From assembly GCA_002382665.1 (NCBI GenBank), contig DFZA01000006.1:66950-130949 (forward strand): a stretch of 64,000 bases of DNA, in the 5' to 3' direction. The stretch's first letter is position 1, and every line of letters begins with the position of its first letter. Below the pieces are notes generated by a model. It did not search any database, was not told where the DNA came from, and saw only the letters and a program-made list of their open reading frames with translations. This DNA is from Peptococcaceae bacterium UBA4068. GTDB lineage: Bacteria; Bacillota; Dehalobacteriia; UBA4068. The position numbers and the translations under genes were made by a program. Shown piece by piece: positions 2,314 through 52,064 of the stretch.

Positions 2314-3330
2314 ATGAAACAAATAGCTACAACCGAAGCGGTCGGACAAGTTCTTTGTCACGATATCACCAGAATTGTCAAAGACGACAGCAAGGGAGTT
2401 GCCTTTAAAAAAGGCCATATCATTCAAGAAGAAGATATTCCCAAATTATTAGCATTGGGCAAAGACAACATTTATATCTGGGAACAGCAGCCAGGAATGA
2501 TGCACGAAAACGAAGCTGCAGTCATACTGCGTGATATCTCAATCAATAAAAATATGTATGCAACCGTACCCAGCGAAGGCAAAATTGAGCTGGTAGCCGC
2601 CGAAGACGGCTTACTTAAAGTAGACAGCAAGCGTCTGCAGCAAATCAACTCTATCGGCGAAATAATCATCGCTAGCCGTCATGGCAATTTCCCAGTTAAA
2701 ACCGGTGATAAAATTGCTGGCATGCGCGTCATCCCGTTGATGATAGAAGAAGAAAAATTAAACTTAGCCCAAAAGATTGCCGATAACACACCGCTTTTTT
2801 CTTTGCTGCCGTTTAAAAACAAAAAGGCGGCCATTATTACAACAGGCAATGAGGTTTTTCACAAAAGGATCCAGGACACTTTTACGCCCGTTATTATCGA
2901 TAAGCTAGCCGAATATGGCACCGAAGTGATCTATCATACCGTCTCGCCTGATAATAAAGATCTTACCGCCGCCGCTATCAATGATGCTCTTAAACATAAT
3001 GTTGAAATAATCATCTGTACCGGTGGCATGAGCGTTGACCCCGATGACTTGACCCCGGCTGCGATCCATCAAAGCGGTGCGGAAATTATTACTTACGGCG
3101 CGCCGGTACTGCCAGGAGCCATGTTGATGTTAGCTTATCATGGCAACGTACCGATAGTAGGCCTTCCTGGCTGTGTTATGTATTGTAAACGGACTGTATT
3201 TGATCTGATACTGCCACGTTTACTGGCCAATGACCGACTTAATGTCGATGATCTGACCGGTCTTGGTGAAGGAGGGTTATGCCTTGGCTGCCAAACTTGT
3301 ACATATCCAACTTGCGGTTTTGGTAAATAA
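2314..3330 (+). CDS. Molybdopterin-binding (MoCF-biosynthesis, MoeA/MogA-like) domain protein with C-terminal Cys cluster
   Basis: ITTGNEV...ICTGGMSVDPDDLT...GLPG motifs of the MogA/MoeA fold. CLGCQTCTYPTC at the C-terminus. Sits immediately upstream of modABC. Confidence 0.55.
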   Translation: MKQIATTEAVGQVLCHDITRIVKDDSKGVAFKKGHIIQEEDIPKLLALGKDNIYIWEQQPGMMHENEAAVILRDISINKNMYATVPSEGKIELVAAEDGLLKVDSKRLQQINSIGEIIIASRHGNFPVKTGDKIAGMRVIPLMIEEEKLNLAQKIADNTPLFSLLPFKNKKAAIITTGNEVFHKRIQDTFTPVIIDKLAEYGTEVIYHTVSPDNKDLTAAAINDALKHNVEIIICTGGMSVDPDDLTPAAIHQSGAEIITYGAPVLPGAMLMLAYHGNVPIVGLPGCVMYCKRTVFDLILPRLLANDRLNVDDLTGLGEGGLCLGCQTCTYPTCGFGK

Positions 3331-3389
3331 TACTGCTGACGAGCAGTTTATATATAGCAATTAATATTAATTAACAGGAGGAATACATA

Positions 3390-4187
3390 ATGAAGAAATA
3401 TTTACTTGCCGCACTACTTATTTTAACTTTAGTTTTTTGCGCTGCCTGCTCATCTTCCGAAGATCAAACAACTGACGAAGATCAAGCTCCGAAGGTAACA
3501 TTAACGGTTGCTGCAGCTGCCAGCCTCACCAACGTTACTGAAGAAATTAAAGATCTCTATGCCGAAAAAGCACCTAACGTAACTTTGAATTTTACTTACG
3601 GTTCTTCCGGCGCCCTGCAAACGCAAATTGAAGAAGGCGCTGGGGTTGATGTCTTTTTCTCCGCCGCTACCAAACAAATGGATGCTCTTGCAGATAAAGA
3701 TTTAATTGATACAGCTAGCAAAAAAGACCTGTTAGCTAACGAAGTAGTACTGATTGTTCCCAAAGACAGTACCAAAGGTATTACATCTTTTGAAGATTTG
3801 GCTACCGATAAAGTCAGCCTATTAGCCATCGGCGATCCGGCTTCCGTTCCCGCCGGACAATATGCCAAAGAAGTCTTCACGGCTTTAGGTATTTGGGATA
3901 CCGTCAGTGCCAAAGCTACTCTGGGTACTGATGTTACTGCGGTATTAACCTGGGTCGAAAACGGCGAGGTCGATTGCGGTGTAGTCTATTCAACCGACGC
4001 CGCCTCCAGCGACAAAGTAACAGTCGTCTGTGATGCCCCGGCTGACAGTCATTCGCCGATCATTTACCCGGTAGCCATTGTAAAAGCCAGCGCCAATGCC
4101 GAGGCGGCCGCCGATTTTATTGATTTTCTGTCCAGTGACGAAGCTATGCAGGTATTCGCTGATTACGGTTTTAAAGCTAATAAATAA
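3390..4187 (+). CDS. modA: Molybdate ABC transporter substrate-binding lipoprotein
   Basis: Lipobox LVFCAAC. ModA-like periplasmic-binding fold motifs (GSSGAL, AAD). Followed by permease and ATPase genes. Confidence 0.8.
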   Translation: MKKYLLAALLILTLVFCAACSSSEDQTTDEDQAPKVTLTVAAAASLTNVTEEIKDLYAEKAPNVTLNFTYGSSGALQTQIEEGAGVDVFFSAATKQMDALADKDLIDTASKKDLLANEVVLIVPKDSTKGITSFEDLATDKVSLLAIGDPASVPAGQYAKEVFTALGIWDTVSAKATLGTDVTAVLTWVENGEVDCGVVYSTDAASSDKVTVVCDAPADSHSPIIYPVAIVKASANAEAAADFIDFLSSDEAMQVFADYGFKANK

Positions 4188-4202
4188 AAGGAGTTTCACT
4201 TA

Positions 4203-4880
4203 ATGCAGCTATCCCCACTGATAATTTCGCTGCAGGTGGCTTGCGTTGCCACATTTATTACCTTCTTTTGTGGCATTGCAGCTGCCAGATTAGTATTGAA
4301 AATAAAAAAAGGCCAAAACTTACTGGACGTACTGTTCACATTACCATTGGTATTGCCGCCTACAGTAATGGGATTCTTTTTACTGCTGGTTTTCGGCACC
4401 AATAACCCTTTAGGGCAGCTATTGGCGACATTCGGTATTAAAGTGGTATTTTCCTTAGGCGGTGCTATCATTGCCGCTGCCACGGTCAGCTTCCCGTTAA
4501 TGTACCGTACCGCCAGAGGCGCTTTTGAACAGATTGACATCAATACTATCTATGCCGCTCGTACGTTGGGCGCTTCTGAACAATGGATATTCTGGAAACT
4601 GATCGTCCCACTTTCCGGGCCGGGTATTATCGCCGGCACTATCCTTGCCTTTACCCGTGCACTGGGCGAATTTGGCGCAACTATCATGCTTGCCGGCAAT
4701 ATTCCCGGTAAAACACAAACGATGTCTGTTGCCATTTACACAGCGGTACAAGCCGGAAATCGTCAGCTTGCCTATCAATGGGTAGCAATAATCTGCACTA
4801 TTTCTTTGATCACTATTTTACTGATGAATTACTGGAGTAATTATCAGAAACGTCGGCAGCAGCGGGAGGTTAAACTATGA
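4203..4880 (+). CDS. modB: Molybdate ABC transporter permease
   Basis: 225-aa polytopic membrane protein with ABC permease EAA-like loop (ARTLGAS...FWKLIVP). Translationally adjacent to modA and modC. Confidence 0.8.
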   Translation: MQLSPLIISLQVACVATFITFFCGIAAARLVLKIKKGQNLLDVLFTLPLVLPPTVMGFFLLLVFGTNNPLGQLLATFGIKVVFSLGGAIIAAATVSFPLMYRTARGAFEQIDINTIYAARTLGASEQWIFWKLIVPLSGPGIIAGTILAFTRALGEFGATIMLAGNIPGKTQTMSVAIYTAVQAGNRQLAYQWVAIICTISLITILLMNYWSNYQKRRQQREVKL

Positions 4881-5935
4881 GCCTCCAAGTTGAAATTTCA
4901 AAAAAGCTTGGCAATTTTACACTCGATGTTGCATTCTCTGCCACAGATGAGATATTAGCGATCCTTGGCGCGTCCGGTTGCGGAAAAAGCATGACGCTTA
5001 AATGCATCGCCGGGATTGAAAAACCCGATAAAGGGCGGATCGTTCTTAATGACCGTGTTTTATATGACAGCGCCGCCCATATCAACCTAACGCCGCAACA
5101 ACGACAAGCCGGATACTTGTTTCAAAATTACGCATTATTTCCTAATCTCACTGTTGATGCAAATATTGGTGTTGGCGTCAAAGCTCCTGCTGCTGCCAAA
5201 CGGCAAATAATAAATGAAAAAATCAAGGAATTCTATCTGGAAGGACAAGAAAACAAATTTCCGCATCAACTCTCAGGCGGACAGCAACAACGAGTCGCAT
5301 TAGCGCGTATGTTGGCACAGCAGCCACAACTGATAATGCTTGACGAACCGTTCGCCGCGCTTGACAACCATCTGCAATGGCAAACGGAGCAGCAAATCCG
5401 TCGGATTTTTGATAGTTTTTCCGGAACGGTGCTGTTCGTCTCTCACAATCGTGACGAGGTTTATCGGCTTTGTGACAGAGCGGCAGTACTTGATCATGGA
5501 CATATTGATTTTATATCCGATAAACATTCATTCTTTGACAGTCCGCGAACTGCGGCTTCCGCACAGCTTACCGGCTGTCAAAATATCAGCAGTGCCACCA
5601 AAATCGATGCTCATACAGTAATAGCCAATGATTGGCAGTTAAGTCTTACTACCAAAGCTATAGTTCCTGATGATATCGCTTATGTCGGATATCGCTCCCA
5701 CTATCTTTATCCGGCAACGTCCATCGGCGGCAACGTTTACCCGCTGAAAATCAAGAGAATAATTGAAGATAGCTTCTCCATGATTATTTTAATGGTCAAT
5801 CCTGATAATAGCAGCGATAACGCGCCGACAATTCGTTGGAAAGTAGATAAGAACATTTGGCAAGATAATTATCATGAGCAGCAAATAGTTAATATCGGTT
5901 TTAATCCGGAAAAAATAATGCTGCTAAACAAATAA
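4877..5935 (+). CDS. modC: Molybdate ABC transporter ATP-binding protein with C-terminal TOBE-like extension
   Basis: Walker A GASGCGKS, signature LSGGQQQRVALAR, Walker B LIMLDEPFAALD. Start overlaps the modB stop. Confidence 0.8.
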   Translation: MSLQVEISKKLGNFTLDVAFSATDEILAILGASGCGKSMTLKCIAGIEKPDKGRIVLNDRVLYDSAAHINLTPQQRQAGYLFQNYALFPNLTVDANIGVGVKAPAAAKRQIINEKIKEFYLEGQENKFPHQLSGGQQQRVALARMLAQQPQLIMLDEPFAALDNHLQWQTEQQIRRIFDSFSGTVLFVSHNRDEVYRLCDRAAVLDHGHIDFISDKHSFFDSPRTAASAQLTGCQNISSATKIDAHTVIANDWQLSLTTKAIVPDDIAYVGYRSHYLYPATSIGGNVYPLKIKRIIEDSFSMIILMVNPDNSSDNAPTIRWKVDKNIWQDNYHEQQIVNIGFNPEKIMLLNK

Positions 5936-41399: not shown

Positions 41400-41492
41400 G
41401 GAGAAGTCGCCTAGTTTGGTCGAGGGCGCGCGACTGGAAATCGCGTAAACCCCAAAAGGGTTTCGAGAGTTCGAATCTCTCCTTCTCCGCCA
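41400..41492 (+). tRNA. tRNA-Ser (anticodon GGA), class II with long variable arm
   Basis: Acceptor GGAGAAG/CTTCTCC+G+CCA, anticodon loop CTGGAAA, 93 nt. Followed by a hairpin and T-run terminator at 41501-41540. Confidence 0.85.
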
Positions 41493-41603
41493 CACAACAA
41501 AACGCCTGTATCAGATAGGTACGGGCGTTTATTTTTTTGCTGTTTTGGAGATAAATTCCCAATATTAAAGCTTAAGGGGTTAGTATATTTGTCACTATAG
41601 AAA
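41433..41603 (+). repeat. Direct repeat copy A (171 bp): 3' 60 nt of tRNA-Ser, its terminator and about 65 bp of flank
   Basis: Aligns at about 88% identity with 42827-42997. Confidence 0.85.
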
Positions 41604-41822: not shown

Positions 41823-42527
41823 TCAAATTCGCTTAAACAATATGCCTGATAAAATGCCCAATATAATCAAGACGATAAAATCTATTGAAATTACTGCGAT
41901 TTCGAAAATATACTCGCGTTGGATGCCATAAACAAAAGTAATAACTCCTAAAGCGGCTATTGATAAAATAAATCCTACGACACAAGTCCACCGGAGAGTA
42001 TTTGAAAGCCAACCTTTTTGGGTAAATACAGGTGCAAAAAACAATATAGAAAACGATAATAACAAATAACCGGCTTCTTCCAAAGCAATAAAGATTCCAT
42101 GAGGATTATATTGTGTTAAAAGTGCCAAAGCCTCAGTTTCGCCGTTAAGTAGGCTTTGTTGTATCACAGTGACCTGTAAAAAGTAATCAACAAAAAGGAT
42201 ACCGGAAGCTAAAACAGCAAACATCACGCCTATGTGGCTGTATAGCTTTTTTTCAGAACAGGCGTATCTGTGAACACAAACTCCGTAGATAATAAACACC
42301 AAAACTAAAGCCATCGCTGGATACATCCAAAAATAATCCCTGGGGAAACGTGAGATTATGTCTGTATAGGGGTATGTAGTAATTGTACCTGTAGCAAAGG
42401 GGCCTGATATAGGTGGGGTACATATTGCTATTGCAAAAGTAAGAACTGTTAAAACTGACAACACTATGGAGCTGGTCATACCAATTGTCTTCAATTTAAA
42501 ATCAGCTTTGTCTTTACCATTTATCAT
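41823..42527 (-). CDS. Polytopic membrane protein of unknown function (bracketed by the tRNA-Ser direct repeats)
   Basis: 234 aa, about 7 TM helices. Confidence 0.45.
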   Translation of the reverse strand: MINGKDKADFKLKTIGMTSSIVLSVLTVLTFAIAICTPPISGPFATGTITTYPYTDIISRFPRDYFWMYPAMALVLVFIIYGVCVHRYACSEKKLYSHIGVMFAVLASGILFVDYFLQVTVIQQSLLNGETEALALLTQYNPHGIFIALEEAGYLLLSFSILFFAPVFTQKGWLSNTLRWTCVVGFILSIAALGVITFVYGIQREYIFEIAVISIDFIVLIILGILSGILFKRI

Positions 42528-42826: not shown

Positions 42827-42997
42827 ACTGGAAATCGCGTAAACCCCAAAAGGGTTTCGAGAGTTCGAATCTCTCCTTCTCCGCCACACAACAAAACACC
42901 TGTATCTGATAGGTACGGGTGTTTATTTTTTGCTCTAATTGAGATAAATTCTTAATATTTAAGTTTTAGGGGTTAGTATATTTAGCCACTATAGAAA
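42827..42997 (+). repeat. Direct repeat copy B: partial tRNA-Ser (from the anticodon loop to CCA), terminator and flank
   Basis: actggaaatcgcg...ccgcca plus aaaacacctgtatctgataggtacgggtgttt terminator plus gagataaatt...ggggttagtatattt...ctatagaaa, homologous to 41433-41603. Confidence 0.85.
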
Positions 42998-45005: not shown

Positions 45006-45044
45006 GAGCGGCTCGAGGTTTATAATTCCTCTATGCTTCTATAT

Positions 45045-45077
45045 AAAAAGCTTGCAGGTTAATTCTGCAAGCTTTTT
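45045..45077. terminator. Bidirectional terminator (aaaaagcttgcag / ctgcaagcttttt) marking the left edge of the AT-rich island
   Basis: 12-bp perfect stem, A-run and T-run on opposite sides. Confidence 0.65.
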
Positions 45078-45115
45078 AAGTTGTGAATATTCAATGAGTT
45101 AGGTATTCTTTTTAT

Positions 45116-46900
45116 TTATTTGTCAGGCTTTAATTTATATATTGGCCAACTTCTAAATATATCTTGATCTGAAGGATCAAGCTTTTCAAAGTACATATGA
45201 TAATCAAAAACATTATCTAATAAAATACTTATTGAACATAATGCAAGAACATCTTCATCTGAGTTAAGTTTTGCTTTTTTGTCATTTAATTGTATTTTTT
45301 CTTCCTTAGATAATGGAGTTTGTCTTTTTTTAATTTGCATTGTATTTATTAGATTAATAGTACTATCTATAGAATAATTGTCTAAATAATTTTGAATTTT
45401 TTCAGCTAATATTAAGAGTTTCCCACGTGTAGTATCTTTATCATATGCTATTAATATCTGAATAAGAAATTCAGTTAATAAGCTAAATGTTTGTTCATTT
45501 AATTCCATAGAAATAATTGAATCATAAATAACGTCACATTTAATGTTCGAAAATCTTAAAATATCCTCAGATTTCAGCTGTATATATGGACTAACTATAG
45601 CTTCTTCTCCATTTGTAAATTTCGCAATTACCATTAAATCATCATTTTTTTCAAAATAATTAAGTATTTCAAAAGCACCGTTATCTTTGGGTATTACTAA
45701 TAGAGCAATACTAAGAGGCCCTATCATTATACAAGTTATACCTACTTGCAACTGTATCCCATTAGGAATTATTATCTTATTAAGGGAATTAATTAACCAT
45801 GTCAAATTATTAGAATTTGGCTTTATGAGATCATCAAAGTTTTTATCATAATTAATCCCTAAATTATTAAGTATATTTTCTGCCATAGTATAATTTGATA
45901 GTAATTCTTCTAATTCTTCTAAACCTTTATTGTCACGAAAATCTATATTAGTAACATTAGAATATAAAGGAGTTTCATCTATTTCTATTATCTTTTTACT
46001 AAAAACAGCAATTAAAAACCTAATATCTTTTATTCTTTCTTTCAAACTTCCTATTATCTTATAATCTACCTTTATTTCCTTTCCATTAATTTTAAGTAAC
46101 TCAATTGCTTGTCCAACTTGTATTTTTTCATTATCTTTATTTTTGGCAACTCTGTAACTTGAATAATACTCAATTCCTTCAACATTAACATTCCTAGAAA
46201 TTTCTTTTACTATTTCATTAATTTGTATCGTTCTATTAAAAGGAACAAATGGACTTTCTGGATTTAGTTTCCCATATAAATAATTTTCGTCATCAAAAAC
46301 ATTAATAATTGAGCCCATTTCATAAGACGTTACCCCTATTTCAATTTTATTGACTTTTTCAATATCTTTGAAGTCAATATAAATATCATTTTTTTGCATT
46401 TCCATATTTTTATATGTATCTGCACATATATATGTAAATGATGAAGATTTATTTTCTGGAACATATTTCAAGCAAATGTTTATTTGCTTTTGATTTTCGT
46501 TTAGTTTTCCTATTAGTTTTTTTATATCTACAGGTAAAAGTCTTTTATAGTATAATCTACATAAACTAATACTTTTCTCATCAATTTCTACAACAAAAAA
46601 AATAACACCAATTTTTAATGTATATTTTTTTAAATCTGTAACATTCAACGGATATGATCTAGTATTATCACTAAATTTTTTAACAAGCTTCCCTTTTACT
46701 TGAACCGGAATGCAACCAGTCAAATGATCTTTTTTCTGCTCGCCATTGTTGAATATTTCAATTTCGCCATCCCAAATAATGTCTCTTTCACTCTTTTTTA
46801 TATTGGCGTGTAATAACGAACATGAATTAATAGCAGTACAAACTGTTTGAACTGCTGCTTCTTCTATTTTAGTACTCGGTATTGACATTATAATTACCAC
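45116..46900 (-). CDS. Large AT-rich orphan protein (594 aa) with DUF4365-like N-terminal domain
   Basis: Long ORF with strongly AT-biased codons. N-terminal D-x-GEIEI...VQVKGK pattern, reminiscent of DUF4365, a PD-(D/E)xK-like domain family. No Walker or TM motifs. Confidence 0.5.
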   Translation of the reverse strand: MVIIMSIPSTKIEEAAVQTVCTAINSCSLLHANIKKSERDIIWDGEIEIFNNGEQKKDHLTGCIPVQVKGKLVKKFSDNTRSYPLNVTDLKKYTLKIGVIFFVVEIDEKSISLCRLYYKRLLPVDIKKLIGKLNENQKQINICLKYVPENKSSSFTYICADTYKNMEMQKNDIYIDFKDIEKVNKIEIGVTSYEMGSIINVFDDENYLYGKLNPESPFVPFNRTIQINEIVKEISRNVNVEGIEYYSSYRVAKNKDNEKIQVGQAIELLKINGKEIKVDYKIIGSLKERIKDIRFLIAVFSKKIIEIDETPLYSNVTNIDFRDNKGLEELEELLSNYTMAENILNNLGINYDKNFDDLIKPNSNNLTWLINSLNKIIIPNGIQLQVGITCIMIGPLSIALLVIPKDNGAFEILNYFEKNDDLMVIAKFTNGEEAIVSPYIQLKSEDILRFSNIKCDVIYDSIISMELNEQTFSLLTEFLIQILIAYDKDTTRGKLLILAEKIQNYLDNYSIDSTINLINTMQIKKRQTPLSKEEKIQLNDKKAKLNSDEDVLALCSISILLDNVFDYHMYFEKLDPSDQDIFRSWPIYKLKPDK

Positions 46901-47098
46901 CTATATGATTTTTTTATTATAGGTATAAAATACTAATCTCAAACTCTTCTTGTCTTCTTTAAACTTCAAATTACATTCGCTACCTTATTCTTATATACAG
47001 AATAATACATTTTTCTACATAATGCAATTATTGTATTAAAAATAAGACAGCCCTGACTTATTATCAGAGCTGTCTTATAAGAACATACGATTCCTATC

Positions 47099-47617
47099 CT
47101 ACATACATTCATATGGATTGATTATCACCACATCCAACCCCTGTTTCCTTGCGTAATAGATAGTTTGGGCGGTGCCGCCGCTGGATGACAGATCGTGAAC
47201 AGCAATCAGACGCGACGAACTGTCTATCATTTTTTGGTTACGCCGCTGCATACAGCCGGTCGTATAATTCATCTGCAAACAAATTACCTCATCGGCTTTA
47301 GTCAGTATATTTATGTATTCTTCGCGCCAGTCTACCAACCATCTATCCGCCTGCGTTTCGCAAGGCAGATAACAAATCAGCCGGATATCAGGAAATTTCT
47401 CTTTCAGCTTTAAAATAATCTCCGCCGCCCAGATGTCCACACCCATGGCCATACCGGTTTGAAACGTCGTAAATCCTAGAAAGATACTTTTACGTATTTC
47501 ATATTCCAATTTGTTTAAGAGCAAAGCCAAATTTAATTCCATTGGCAATTTATGCGGACGCAAGCCACTGATCGTACATACTTTATCTTTTCCTGACATT
47601 TTATCTCCTTTTATCAT
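47099..47617 (-). CDS. SLOG-superfamily YpsA/DUF1273-family protein
   Basis: GMAMGVDIWAAE (cf. YpsA GxxLGvElWAAE) and the C-terminal SGGT motif of the DprA/LOG-like Rossmann fold. Confidence 0.7.
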   Translation of the reverse strand: MIKGDKMSGKDKVCTISGLRPHKLPMELNLALLLNKLEYEIRKSIFLGFTTFQTGMAMGVDIWAAEIILKLKEKFPDIRLICYLPCETQADRWLVDWREEYINILTKADEVICLQMNYTTGCMQRRNQKMIDSSSRLIAVHDLSSSGGTAQTIYYARKQGLDVVIINPYECM

Positions 47618-47695
47618 ATAACATGTATTATGTTAGATTATTATAACATATTATATAACCAGAAGGCAATATAAAATTGTCTTGAGGTGATCGTA

Positions 47696-47893
47696 ATGAG
47701 TAACAACCGCATTCCCATATCAAAAAAGGAACATGCAAAAGGAGAAGACGGGTATAAAACTTTCTCCATTCGTATAAAAGAAGAAACAGTCGCTGCGCTG
47801 GACGCTATAGCAAATAAAAGCAACCGCTCCAGAAACGAACTAATCAATATATTTTTGGACTATGGAGTTGAACACTGCGAAATCGTAGAGTAA
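47696..47893 (+). CDS. Ribbon-helix-helix (CopG/Arc/MetJ-like) DNA-binding protein
   Basis: KTFSIRIKEETVAALDAIANKSNRSRNELI, the β-strand-helix-helix pattern of RHH regulators and antitoxins. Confidence 0.6.
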   Translation: MSNNRIPISKKEHAKGEDGYKTFSIRIKEETVAALDAIANKSNRSRNELINIFLDYGVEHCEIVE

Positions 47894-47918
47894 TAACCCC
47901 ATTTAGTCGAGGTGCGCC
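47851..47918 (+). repeat. 68-bp direct repeat, copy 1 (3' end of RHH gene plus RBS region)
   Basis: About 94% identical to 48701-48768. Both copies end exactly at an ATG start codon. Confidence 0.9.
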
Positions 47919-48701
47919 ATGAAAAACAAAGTTATTTTATTTGTTATTGTTCTTTTATTAGTAATCTGTACATCGTCATATTTTTTTATTAGTAATAACA
48001 ATCAGACTAATAAAAAAACAGAGTCTACATCTACTGCCGAAATTTCCACTGCTACCACAATACCAAGTGTATCTAAAGAAACAGAAACAAAATACGAATG
48101 GGTTATTAAACCAAAACTTGATTATTCATTAATCGTTTTTGATCCATTTGCCCAAAACTATCAAGGAATAATAAATTATAAAGATGGAGAAAGTCATTAT
48201 GTAATCAGCAGCGAAACGGGAGAAGAAACTGGTGAATCTATTTTAGGCGATTCTATTGGCATTATGCCTTTCTGTGATCCACAACAAAATATTTTAGGTA
48301 CGCGTACTTATACTACTTGGGGTCAACAATTGTATGGTGAAGGAGATATTACTCAATTAGATTCTATTGCAGATATTGAAAGTGTTATTAAAACACACCA
48401 AAAGATAGCCACTCTAATTCCGTTACAAAAGGCCGATTTTTCTTCAGCAACTTCTTTCTCTAATAAATATGCTTTAGCAAACACTAATGATATTATCACA
48501 GATTTTATCTATGATGACGTTGACGGTTATTATAATACATCCACTTTTGCTGTTTGTAAAAACAACAAATGGGGATTCATCAATGATAAAGGCGAGCAAA
48601 TAATTGATTTTGTTTTTGATGGTGCAGTGAGTATTGAAACAGGAAAAGCATTCGTTAAGCAAAATGACAAGTGGGGAATTATTAAGATAACTATTGAATA
48701 A
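47919..48701 (+). CDS. WG-repeat (KWG motif) lipoprotein
   Basis: Signal peptide plus Cys. Repeated ...NKWGFINDKGEQ.../...NDKWGII... WG-containing repeats. Confidence 0.55.
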   Translation: MKNKVILFVIVLLLVICTSSYFFISNNNQTNKKTESTSTAEISTATTIPSVSKETETKYEWVIKPKLDYSLIVFDPFAQNYQGIINYKDGESHYVISSETGEETGESILGDSIGIMPFCDPQQNILGTRTYTTWGQQLYGEGDITQLDSIADIESVIKTHQKIATLIPLQKADFSSATSFSNKYALANTNDIITDFIYDDVDGYYNTSTFAVCKNNKWGFINDKGEQIIDFVFDGAVSIETGKAFVKQNDKWGIIKITIE

Positions 48702-48768
48702 TTTTTGGACTATGGAGTTGAACACTGCGAAATCGTAGAGTAATAACCCCATTTAATCGAGGTATACC
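48701..48768 (+). repeat. 68-bp direct repeat, copy 2 (precedes nim-like gene)
   Basis: See copy 1. Confidence 0.9.
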
Positions 48769-49257
48769 ATGAGGAGAAAAGACAGAGAAGTAACCAACCT
48801 TGACGAGATAAGAGACATCATTGAAAAATGTAAAGTCTGCCACCTTGCTATGGTGGATAACGGTATGCCCTATGTTATACCGCTTAATTTTGGTTATATA
48901 ATCGCAGATAATTTGCTGACTCTCTTTTTCCACAGCGCAAAAGAAGGGCGCAAAATCAATATATTAAAAGCTAACAATCAGGTTTGCTTTGAAATGACCT
49001 GCGAAGGTAAATCGCTTAATATAGAAAACCCCTGCAATTCAGGTTATTACTTCGAAAGCGTGCATGGATTCGGTCAGGTTGAATTCATTGAAGATGTCGA
49101 TGAAAAATGCCACGCGCTCACGCTTCTGGCAAAACATCAGTTAAATCAGGATTTCGTCTTCACAGAAAATCAGGCAAACAGCGTATGTGTGTTCAAGGTA
49201 GTATCCCAAGACTTTACCGGCAAAAAAAAGCCCGCGCCGGAGCATGATACCCAATAG
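48769..49257 (+). CDS. Pyridoxamine-5'-phosphate-oxidase-like, Nim (5-nitroimidazole reductase)-family protein
   Basis: N-terminal split-barrel pattern (CHLAMVDNGMPYVIPLNFGY...FHSAKEGRKI) as in NimA-type proteins, 162 aa. Confidence 0.65.
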   Translation: MRRKDREVTNLDEIRDIIEKCKVCHLAMVDNGMPYVIPLNFGYIIADNLLTLFFHSAKEGRKINILKANNQVCFEMTCEGKSLNIENPCNSGYYFESVHGFGQVEFIEDVDEKCHALTLLAKHQLNQDFVFTENQANSVCVFKVVSQDFTGKKKPAPEHDTQ

Positions 49258-51356: not shown

Positions 51357-52064
51357 TTATGTAATACGTAGTAATATCGTAGCTGCCGCGCCATTCTCTA
51401 AGGCAGCGGAAGTGGTGCTACGGGTAACTTTTACAGATAACAAATCACATCGATTAACAGTAAAATTTGCACTTGTAAATGCACAACAAGTTGGCGGATT
51501 TGGCCCTGTTACCACTGCTTTAATGCCTGTTGCTACAGGAGTAACCCCACAATTTGTGCTTCGATATATCTCACCAGTGATGGTTTCGCCTGTATCTAAA
51601 GGTTCGTCTCGAATACTAAAGACTAAACCTGTAATGGTTGAGGTTTGCGGGACGACAACAGTATTGCGCGGAAAACTTGATGACGAAATACCTAGTCCCA
51701 TAAAATCATTATTGCCAATAGATGTATCCGAACCTAAATAAATAGTACTTGCTCCAGGTCCCGTTGCGCCCGTTGCCCCAGTAGCACCTGTAGCGCCCGT
51801 TGCTCCTGTTGCGCCGGTAGGTATGGTTATACAGATACACTCGCAGCATTCACAACATTTCGGACAGCGACAAGGTTCAGTTTCACAGCATGAGTGGTCT
51901 TTATGACAATGACGATTGTTATCTTCACGACAATGGCAATCTTCATCTTCACAACAGAAAAACTCTAAACAATGTTGACAAAAACATAATTTAATATTTC
52001 GGTGTTTTTTTTCTATTTGATGATCCTGAAAATAGTCAGTCTCACCAAAGGTCCTTTTAGGCAT
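51357..52064 (-). CDS. Collagen-like (GAT)n repeat protein with Cys/His-rich N-terminal domain and BclA-C-terminal-like domain (putative spore-surface glycoprotein)
   Basis: 19 Cys in residues 27-79. (GAT)6-GPGAS triple-helix-type repeat encoded by a perfect 9-bp DNA repeat. About 125-aa β-rich C-terminal domain. Confidence 0.6.
   Translation of the reverse strand: MPKRTFGETDYFQDHQIEKKHRNIKLCFCQHCLEFFCCEDEDCHCREDNNRHCHKDHSCCETEPCRCPKCCECCECICITIPTGATGATGATGATGATGATGPGASTIYLGSDTSIGNNDFMGLGISSSSFPRNTVVVPQTSTITGLVFSIRDEPLDTGETITGEIYRSTNCGVTPVATGIKAVVTGPNPPTCCAFTSANFTVNRCDLLSVKVTRSTTSAALENGAAATILLRIT

Follow-up and report, generated by a model that had tools for sequence, protein, structure and literature searches.

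A predicted stand-alone DREN-type nuclease gene, probably of foreign origin, beside a SLOG gene in Peptococcaceae bacterium UBA4068

Introduction

Two adjacent minus-strand genes in the genome of Peptococcaceae bacterium UBA4068 (assembly GCA_002382665.1) raise the question of whether a large nuclease-like protein and a neighbouring SLOG protein constitute one defence module or two separate genes. The genes are located at 45116-47617 of a 64,000-nucleotide stretch of contig DFZA01000006.1 (positions 66,950 to 130,949, forward strand), which is called the window here and to which all coordinates refer. Both open reading frames (ORFs) described in a first-pass annotation of the window, 45116-46900 (594 aa) and 47099-47617 (172 aa), were confirmed. 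In that annotation the larger product was regarded as an orphan protein with a DUF4365-like N-terminus, and the pair as a candidate abortive-infection system. The reading favoured in this study, with credence a little better than even, is that the large gene is monocistronic, horizontally acquired and encodes an Argonaute-independent DREN nuclease, most likely a single-gene defence nuclease against mobile elements. The adjacency of the SLOG and nuclease genes is coincidental and limited to the source genome.

Gene start and protein architecture

The mechanical ORF of the large gene (45116-46900, minus strand, 594 aa) begins with a GTG codon. This codon, at 46900, sits inside the sequence AGGTGG (46902-46897), the likely ribosome-binding site (RBS) of the gene, and an ATG codon follows at 46888, 8 nt 3′ of the same motif. 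As the public gene calls also give an identical 590-aa product (P0001), the likely protein is 590 aa long, and the true start is likely the ATG at 46888 (coding sequence 45116..46888, minus strand, stop codon at 45116-45118). The 594-aa ORF thus exists as first described, while the protein probably begins at the later codon.

Residues 1-165 of the 590-aa protein (46394..46888, minus strand) can be assigned with high confidence to a DREN/DUF4365 nuclease domain of the PD-(D/E)xK type, the catalytic signature of which appears intact, on the evidence of structural matches of the model, Pfam matches among homologues, and residue conservation. The D...EIEI...QVK block pointed out in the first-pass annotation was found as D40-G-E-I-E-I ... 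Q63-V-K65, and the candidate catalytic residues are E9, D40 (46769-46771), Q63 (46700-46702) and K65 (46694-46696). Across 170 family members with a median identity of 25% to the window protein, D40, G41 and Q63 were conserved in 100%, K65 in 99% and E9 in 95% of the sequences. Active-site mutants of DREN domains have been described at D41/Q60/K62 in NbaSPARDA (10.1101/2023.06.08.544223) and at Q62/K64 in TmuRE (PMC10810196), and mutation of the D..QxK motif abolished the toxicity of EAT16, a toxin of an extracellular contractile injection system (eCIS) (PMC11297309). At the level of sequence, D40, Q63 and K65 correspond to this experimentally proven DREN active site.

Searched at a threshold as loose as E≤10, neither the whole 594-aa protein nor its first 167 aa directly matched PF14280 (DUF4365). 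The profile was matched by 6 of 25 aligned family members (best E=1.4e-8), the homologues P0022 and P0023 have precomputed PF14280 matches, and plasmid homologues are labelled “DUF4365 domain-containing protein” by PGAP; the link to DUF4365 is therefore transitive and structural. The full-length protein was modelled with AlphaFold2 from the family alignment (mean pLDDT 86.3, pTM 0.68). In a Foldseek search against the PDB, the top seven matches were DREN-APAZ chains of SPARDA (9qcc, 9jsz, 9jt2, 9qbp; E 6.8e-5 to 3.5e-3, probability 1.0), which spanned 139-221 aligned columns and covered the nuclease part only, and were followed in rank by the type II restriction enzymes R.SwaI, DpnI, HincII and MspJI. 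Searches of the PDB by sequence, started from P0022 or from the family profile, returned no relatives. Taken together, the Pfam matches of homologues, the SPARDA DREN chains at the top of the structural ranking and the near-invariant D40/Q63/K65 bear out the DUF4365/PD-(D/E)xK-like N-terminus that had been proposed.

The rest of the protein, about 425 aa (45119..46393, minus strand), is a conserved C-terminal module delimited by AlphaFold2 models and residue conservation, and its fold is unmatched. In the model it is composed of three parts, i.e. a β-rich region (residues ~170-312), an α/β region (~320-433) and an all-helical TPR-like repeat (~434-590); when modelled alone (423 aa), the C-terminal part reached a pLDDT of 84.7. 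Foldseek searches with this model against the PDB and BFVD gave no match at E≤1e-3; the last ~150 residues showed weak TPR-like similarities and nothing else, and the matches at E≤10 included no chain of SPARDA, APAZ or Argonaute. Scans of the region with Pfam, NCBIfam and PADLOC produced no matches, and no SRA, winged-helix or EVE fold was recognisable. Five polar residues of the module (N448, D483, N515, Q518 and R522) are invariant among the 170 members.

Composition and boundaries of the locus

The large gene has a GC content of 25.5% and a third-codon-position GC content (GC3) of 15.6%, which is the lowest GC3 in the window, and it makes up the lowest-GC 1.8-kb stretch of the 64-kb window (mean 40.4%, standard deviation 4.2). 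The apt and mtnP-like genes, by comparison, have about 44-47% GC. The SLOG gene is host-like in composition, the same as its surroundings (42% GC, GC3 47%), so the low-GC “island” is reduced to one gene and its flanking spacers (~45,079-46,998). The sharp fall in GC content noticed at first for both genes accordingly holds for the large gene and does not extend to the SLOG gene.

On the left, a bidirectional terminator-like hairpin lies between the convergent mtnP-like and DREN-family genes (45044..45078, both strands). It was previously placed at 45045-45077; its 14-bp inverted repeat is perfect and encloses a loop of 7 nt, with folding energies of -20.2 kcal/mol on the plus strand and -18.9 kcal/mol on the minus strand (z-scores of -5.9 and -6.5, respectively, against shuffled sequences) and a T-run after it on each strand, as in bidirectional terminators. 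This hairpin is the left edge of the low-GC insert. On the right, blastn similarity between the window and L020, a SLOG-containing relative, covered 46999-47618 only, and its end at 46999 marks the right edge. The insert lies between the conserved apt-mtnP purine-salvage pair and the SLOG gene of host composition.

A second, intrinsic-terminator-like hairpin (47042..47078, minus strand) with a 16-pair stem and a T-run follows directly after the SLOG stop codon; its folding energy is -27.1 kcal/mol (z-score -8.65). The spacer between the SLOG gene and the large gene is 198 bp long with 25.8% GC, and the AT-rich region immediately upstream of the DREN-family gene (46889..46998, minus strand) contains the gene's own RBS and is a putative promoter region. 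The large gene's own promoter presumably lies here; none was detected by a consensus scan of the upstream region. At the sequence level, the terminator hairpin, the AT-rich 198-bp spacer and the separate RBS do not correspond to an operon. The large gene, as predicted from these signals, is a monocistronic unit bracketed by terminators. Its low GC content, the strong hairpins on both sides and its own RBS point to foreign origin and autonomy, and horizontal acquisition is accepted with good confidence.

A search for flanking direct repeats, att sites or target-site duplications around the low-GC gene found only weak 18-nt matches, which were dismissed as chance, and no integrase is present beside the large gene in the window. 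A relative with an empty site was sought via mtnP in 80 loci, all of them distant (54-75% amino-acid identity), and none was found; synteny among these loci was limited to apt-mtnP.

Relation to the SLOG gene

The SLOG gene (47099..47617, minus strand) encodes a YpsA/YoqJ-type (DUF1273) protein of 172 aa, or 166 aa when started at 47599 as in the public gene calls. Its first identification as SLOG/YpsA was upheld by PF06908, with 68.8 bits against a cutoff of 27.7 (E=7.3e-19, residues 16-155). The glycine-rich loop, the SSGGT motif and the above-threshold PF06908 match are shared with the YpsA/YoqJ family. Against the NCBIfam equivalog PRK13660 the protein scored 47.5 bits, below the cutoff of 165, and therefore it is not an orthologue of Bacillus subtilis YpsA. 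In comparison with that family, its conserved partner, if there is any, is a divergent small helix-turn-helix (HTH) or ribbon-helix-helix (RHH) regulator and no nuclease.

Co-occurrence of the two genes was followed in both directions. Independent loci of the DREN family, 22 in total, were collected from contig look-ups, annotated plasmid and phage records, viral contigs and a motif-pattern scan of reference genomes (WDG..QVKG..LLPVD; 20 genome loci in 8-kb blocks, recovering the W-type subset only), with flanks of 2-10 kb. A hidden Markov model (HMM) constructed from 77 SLOG homologues was run on the six-frame ORFs of all loci, and no SLOG gene was found in any of the 22 family loci at E≤1; the HMM matches were restricted to the window's own genome copies and to the SLOG-seeded loci. 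Conversely, none of the four independent SLOG loci (86%, 65%, 57% and 51% SLOG identity) contained a member of the nuclease family. The closest of these, L020 (86%), shares the SLOG gene and the hairpin at 47042-47078, but both flanks are different, and its gene downstream of SLOG has no homology to the large protein. The other three SLOG relatives are in unrelated contexts. Neither a SLOG nor a family gene was found near the 80 apt-mtnP loci. An association over distances beyond the 2-10 kb flanks is conceivable, though it would not amount to an operon.

The proposed abortive-infection module, in which SLOG would sense a nucleotide or ADP-ribose signal and activate the adjacent nuclease, draws on the adjacency of the genes on the same strand, 198 bp apart, on the SLOG and nuclease domains both being real, and on a SLOG relative inside a conjugative element, which makes this SLOG clade partly mobile. 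It is contradicted by the absence of SLOG from the family loci, of the nuclease gene from the SLOG loci and of both from the mtnP loci, by the strong hairpin between the genes that is kept with the SLOG gene elsewhere, and by a GC gap of 17 points (42% in the SLOG gene vs 25.5% in the nuclease gene). Since the genes do not co-occur, a terminator stands between them and their composition differs, a two-gene module is not supported, and SLOG-coupled activation is considered extremely improbable. The first-pass annotation had itself named missing co-occurrence as evidence against its proposal, and in the sample examined the family never co-occurred with DUF1273 homologues. The large gene is very probably independent of the SLOG gene.

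A small divergent HTH_3 gene was observed beside the SLOG gene in three of the four independent contexts, and in one of them (L133) the SLOG and HTH pair is located in a conjugative element with NikA/MobC and relaxase genes. In the window, the SLOG gene is divergent from a 68-aa RHH/CopG gene at 47687-47893. The SLOG gene with its terminator forms a conserved unit of ~620 bp in unrelated contexts (window 46999-47893; L017, L020 and L133). The small regulator and SLOG together may be the real conserved module, judging from these arrangements.

Distribution of the family

The description of the large protein as an orphan did not survive database searches. A word-indexed search identified 28 full-length homologues with 22-41% identity, and an exhaustive search with a profile of 25 homologues against 1.84 billion representatives returned 3,293 cluster representatives at E≤1e-3, from which 1,817 reached E≤1e-30. 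Nearly all of the 3,293 were 570-610 aa long and aligned from end to end. In PHROGs, phrog_9827 (function unknown) was matched over the full length (E=1e-61). On its sequence, the window protein is an ordinary, divergent family member, with at most 41% identity to its homologues in the word-indexed search.

According to tblastn, members are carried by Clostridium phage D-1873, by the Clostridioides phages LIBA2945 and LIBA6276, and by 26 plasmids of Bacillus, Paenibacillus, Clostridium, Priestia, Enterococcus, Lacticaseibacillus and Rathayibacter, the last being the one actinobacterium. One further member, beside a CobT/VWA protein, was observed at 3315-5144 of locus L042 (CP026657.1), which is labelled “Deltaproteobacteria bacterium Smac51”, and the closest homologue, P0002, bears a Deltaproteobacteria label as well. 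The labels are open to doubt; if they are correct, the family is not confined to Bacillota.

The topology of DUF4365 resembles that of Hjc/Hje resolvases (10.1101/2023.06.08.544223; PMC11297309), from which a housekeeping nuclease of DNA repair or recombination, e.g. an Hjc-like junction resolvase with accessory domains, could be envisaged. The patchy and mobile-element-linked distribution, the foreign composition, and the lack of conserved synteny with repair genes make this very improbable.

Genomic neighbourhoods of the family

The census of neighbours at the 22 family loci (150 ORFs) included Phage_integrase (six), DUF6076 (five), Relaxase (four), and Mob_Pre, RepA_N and TnpV (two each). 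Genes of known defence types were also present. In two loci an MmeI-type IIG restriction-modification (R-M) enzyme was encoded directly, 12-15 nt, upstream of the family gene. A Lamassu/ABC-3C trio (LmuA-like CTD1, MComp1 and LmuB SMC) was located 175-299 bp downstream on the same strand in L035 (Blautia producta DSM 2950, NZ_CP039126.1; 1753-7964) and L046 (a Lachnospiraceae genome), an adjacency which reflects either a defence-island neighbourhood or a functional link. SLFN/AlbA_2-HATPase_c_4 proteins adjoined the family gene in three loci, and a Priestia plasmid locus contained two DndB genes together with a UvrD/AAA (Gabija-like) pair. Contig look-ups added ArdC/DUF3560 in an element resembling an integrative and conjugative element (ICE), DUF4238, FRG, DUF2971 and a 1,008-aa DEAD/ResIII protein.

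Proximity to R-M and Dnd modification genes would suit a restriction-like enzyme, e.g. of type IV or modification-dependent, in which the C-terminus binds DNA, the N-terminus cuts foreign DNA and the host survives. SwaI, DpnI, HincII and MspJI as the structural matches next to SPARDA are in line with such a function, and the basic/polar motif N515-x2-Q518-x3-R522 of the helical domain could contact DNA. However, no fold for DNA binding or for reading modified bases is recognisable in the C-terminus, characterised DREN domains are non-specific collateral nucleases, and no methyltransferase partner is conserved beside the family gene. A restriction-like enzyme is thus regarded as rather unlikely.

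Phages, phage-plasmids, plasmids and integrative mobilisable elements carry most of the homologues, frequently beside an integrase or relaxase gene, a distribution also expected if the protein served the mobile elements themselves, be it as an endonuclease of the homing type, for addiction or exclusion, or as a weapon against competing plasmids and phages. The window gene, a single low-GC gene between terminators without other element genes, is similar in this respect to many free-standing mobile nucleases, and DREN tetramers resemble the homing endonuclease I-Ssp6803I (PMC12205087). On the other hand, homing endonucleases are not typically 590 aa long or equipped with so large a conserved module besides the nuclease, no flanking repeats or target-site duplication were found at the window gene, insertion sites vary among the loci, and the Lamassu adjacency in the Blautia producta chromosome points to defence-island cargo. 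A selfish or competitive function is, on this evidence, quite unlikely.

A gene for a NUDIX hydrolase of ~182 aa precedes the family gene in L030 (2127-2672), L037 (6180-6725), L038 (4040-4585) and L048 (1281-2057), ending 4 nt before the start of the family gene or overlapping it. NUDIX as an obligate partner was rejected, because it is confined to one sub-lineage (proteins 89-97% identical) and is found in the mtnP control loci as well; in a sister lineage (80-85% identical) the MmeI-type IIG enzyme occupies the same position. The NUDIX gene of L048 has a deaminase-like N-terminal fragment.

As no single partner gene is conserved, each family gene is interpreted as self-contained cargo, carried by mobile elements and defence islands.

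Function and comparison with known systems

The 150 neighbouring ORFs of the family matched 362 PADLOC models and the 119 ORFs at 17 mtnP loci matched 15, a large contrast in a count that is crude, as one R-M protein matches many models. Integrases and relaxases were absent from the commonest Pfam families of the mtnP control. From the contexts of its homologues against this control, the conflict or defence role first suggested for the locus is plausible for the large protein itself, and not for a pair with SLOG; a defence or anti-mobile-element role is given slightly more credence than its opposite.

Several observations weigh against a defence function. The defence role of the family is an inference from genomic context. 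PADLOC-DB v2.0.0 (2023) contained no family matched at E≤0.1 by the 594-aa protein or by the SLOG, RHH and WG-repeat proteins of the window, and in the literature searched, the coverage of which was incomplete, no paper on the ~590-aa architecture and no named system were found. In the source contig annotation, the neighbours of the large gene are housekeeping or unrelated genes, with no defence island and no recognisable mobile element. Moreover, the C-terminal module has invariant polar residues, whereas the sensor domains of many defence proteins evolve fast; N448, D483, N515, Q518 and R522 could instead mark a second catalytic site or a conserved site at which DNA or a ligand is bound.

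Among characterised systems, SPARDA is the closest in its nuclease. Its DREN-APAZ protein shares the N-terminal nuclease of ~165 aa with the same D...QxK positions (D40/Q63/K65 in the window protein, D41/Q60/K62 in Nba and Q62/K64 in Tmu), in both cases the effector nuclease forms the N-terminal part of a longer regulatory polypeptide, and SPARDA and the ~590-aa family have mobile-element or defence contexts in common. SPARDA possesses APAZ, whereas the window protein has in its place the unmatched C-terminal module of ~420 aa, and it falls below the Pfam DUF4365 threshold. No PIWI/Argonaute gene is annotated within ±10 kb of the window gene on the source contig. Without APAZ and an Argonaute gene, the window protein is not a member of SPARDA, and guide-dependent sensing cannot be assumed for it. 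In the other family loci, the sole matches to the PADLOC pAgo and Aga_SIR2 models came from three neighbouring ORFs with E-values of about 1e-13, which are at most candidate Argonautes and may be the three SLFN/AlbA_2-HATPase_c_4 proteins, and the PIWI family was absent from the 25 commonest Pfam families of the neighbours.

Proteins of the Avs/AVAST type similarly combine an N-terminal PD-(D/E)xK nuclease with a C-terminal helical (TPR-like) repeat in a single gene of defence islands and mobile elements. The window protein, at ~590 aa, is much smaller, and its C-terminal residues are conserved and not hypervariable. Pfam and NCBIfam scans found no STAND or P-loop NTPase domain in it, the modelled middle region is β-rich, and no Avs family of PADLOC was matched; without an NTPase domain, it is not an Avs/STAND protein. 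DUF4365 also serves as a nuclease for toxicity or defence where no Argonaute is involved, namely in the Photorhabdus eCIS toxin EAT16 and in the integron-cassette defence gene “Divona” (DUF4365 + crr6). These have other C-terminal partners, sizes and hosts (Gammaproteobacteria) than the window protein, and homology is established for the nuclease domain at most.

A mechanism for the favoured single-gene defence nuclease can be sketched after SPARDA. On its own, the DREN domain is an inactive monomer that gains activity on tetramerisation, and in SPARDA the formation of filaments forces DREN into tetramers, which leads to collateral DNase and RNase activity (PMC12205087). In the ~590-aa protein, the C-terminal module would replace APAZ and Argonaute, hold the nuclease off, and sense an infection cue or bind nucleic acid. 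Something produced by the phage or plasmid, or else a feature of nucleic acids, might act as the cue, which would bring about self-association by which DREN is switched on, as in SPARDA. The ensuing indiscriminate DNA cleavage would halt the invader or the infected cell. Activation gated by oligomerisation is possible, though rather doubtful.

At 50% identity the entire family forms no fewer than 3,000 clusters, and its main carriers are Bacillota phages, plasmids and mobilisable elements. Extended to the family as a whole, the tentative proposal, judged less likely than not, is that of a widespread, unnamed and Argonaute-independent DREN defence system, the single polypeptide of which would use a sensor of a new kind to set off collateral DNA degradation through oligomerisation. 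This sensor, in the same tentative proposal, would be the β-rich and TPR-like C-terminus with N448, D483, N515, Q518 and R522.

Other features of the window

A tRNA-Ser(GGA) gene was observed at 41400-41492 (within 41400-41603). Its 3′ part and ~110 nt beyond are repeated 1.4 kb away at 42827-42997 (172 nt, 91% identical), and the two copies flank a gene for a multi-pass membrane protein of 234 aa without a Pfam match (41823-42527). By its arrangement the repeat pair looks like an att-type duplication from a small integrated element.

An 85-nt direct repeat (92% identical; 47838-47922 and 48689-48772) flanks the WG_beta_rep gene at 47919-48701, which is beside the RHH gene and has 31% GC and a GC3 of 20%. 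This gene may, judging by repeats and composition, be a second small insertion. At 51357-52064 on the minus strand, a 235-aa protein with a Cys/His-rich N-terminus followed by a collagen-like (Gly-Ala-Thr)n repeat resembles, in its sequence features, exosporium proteins of the BclA type.

Implications

At this locus, composition, terminators and comparative context together separate the SLOG gene from the nuclease gene cleanly. The DREN domain and the occurrence of DUF4365 outside Argonaute systems are already known; what is new is the regulatory part to which a DREN nuclease is joined here. The collateral nuclease activity of DREN is in use in SPARDA-based diagnostics. If the family is indeed defensive, this collateral nuclease would be deployed without Argonaute too, and the C-terminal module, confidently modelled yet unmatched, would add a previously undescribed domain for sensing or regulation. 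The family would then also constitute a sizeable class of immune nucleases, each encoded by one gene, frequent in the mobile elements of Clostridia and Bacilli, including phage-plasmids of C. botulinum and C. difficile, and unrecognised by PADLOC-DB v2.0.0 (2023). If the tentative proposal is true, DREN would be a portable effector wired to at least two unrelated sensing devices, i.e. guide-loaded Argonaute and the C-terminal module of the ~590-aa family.

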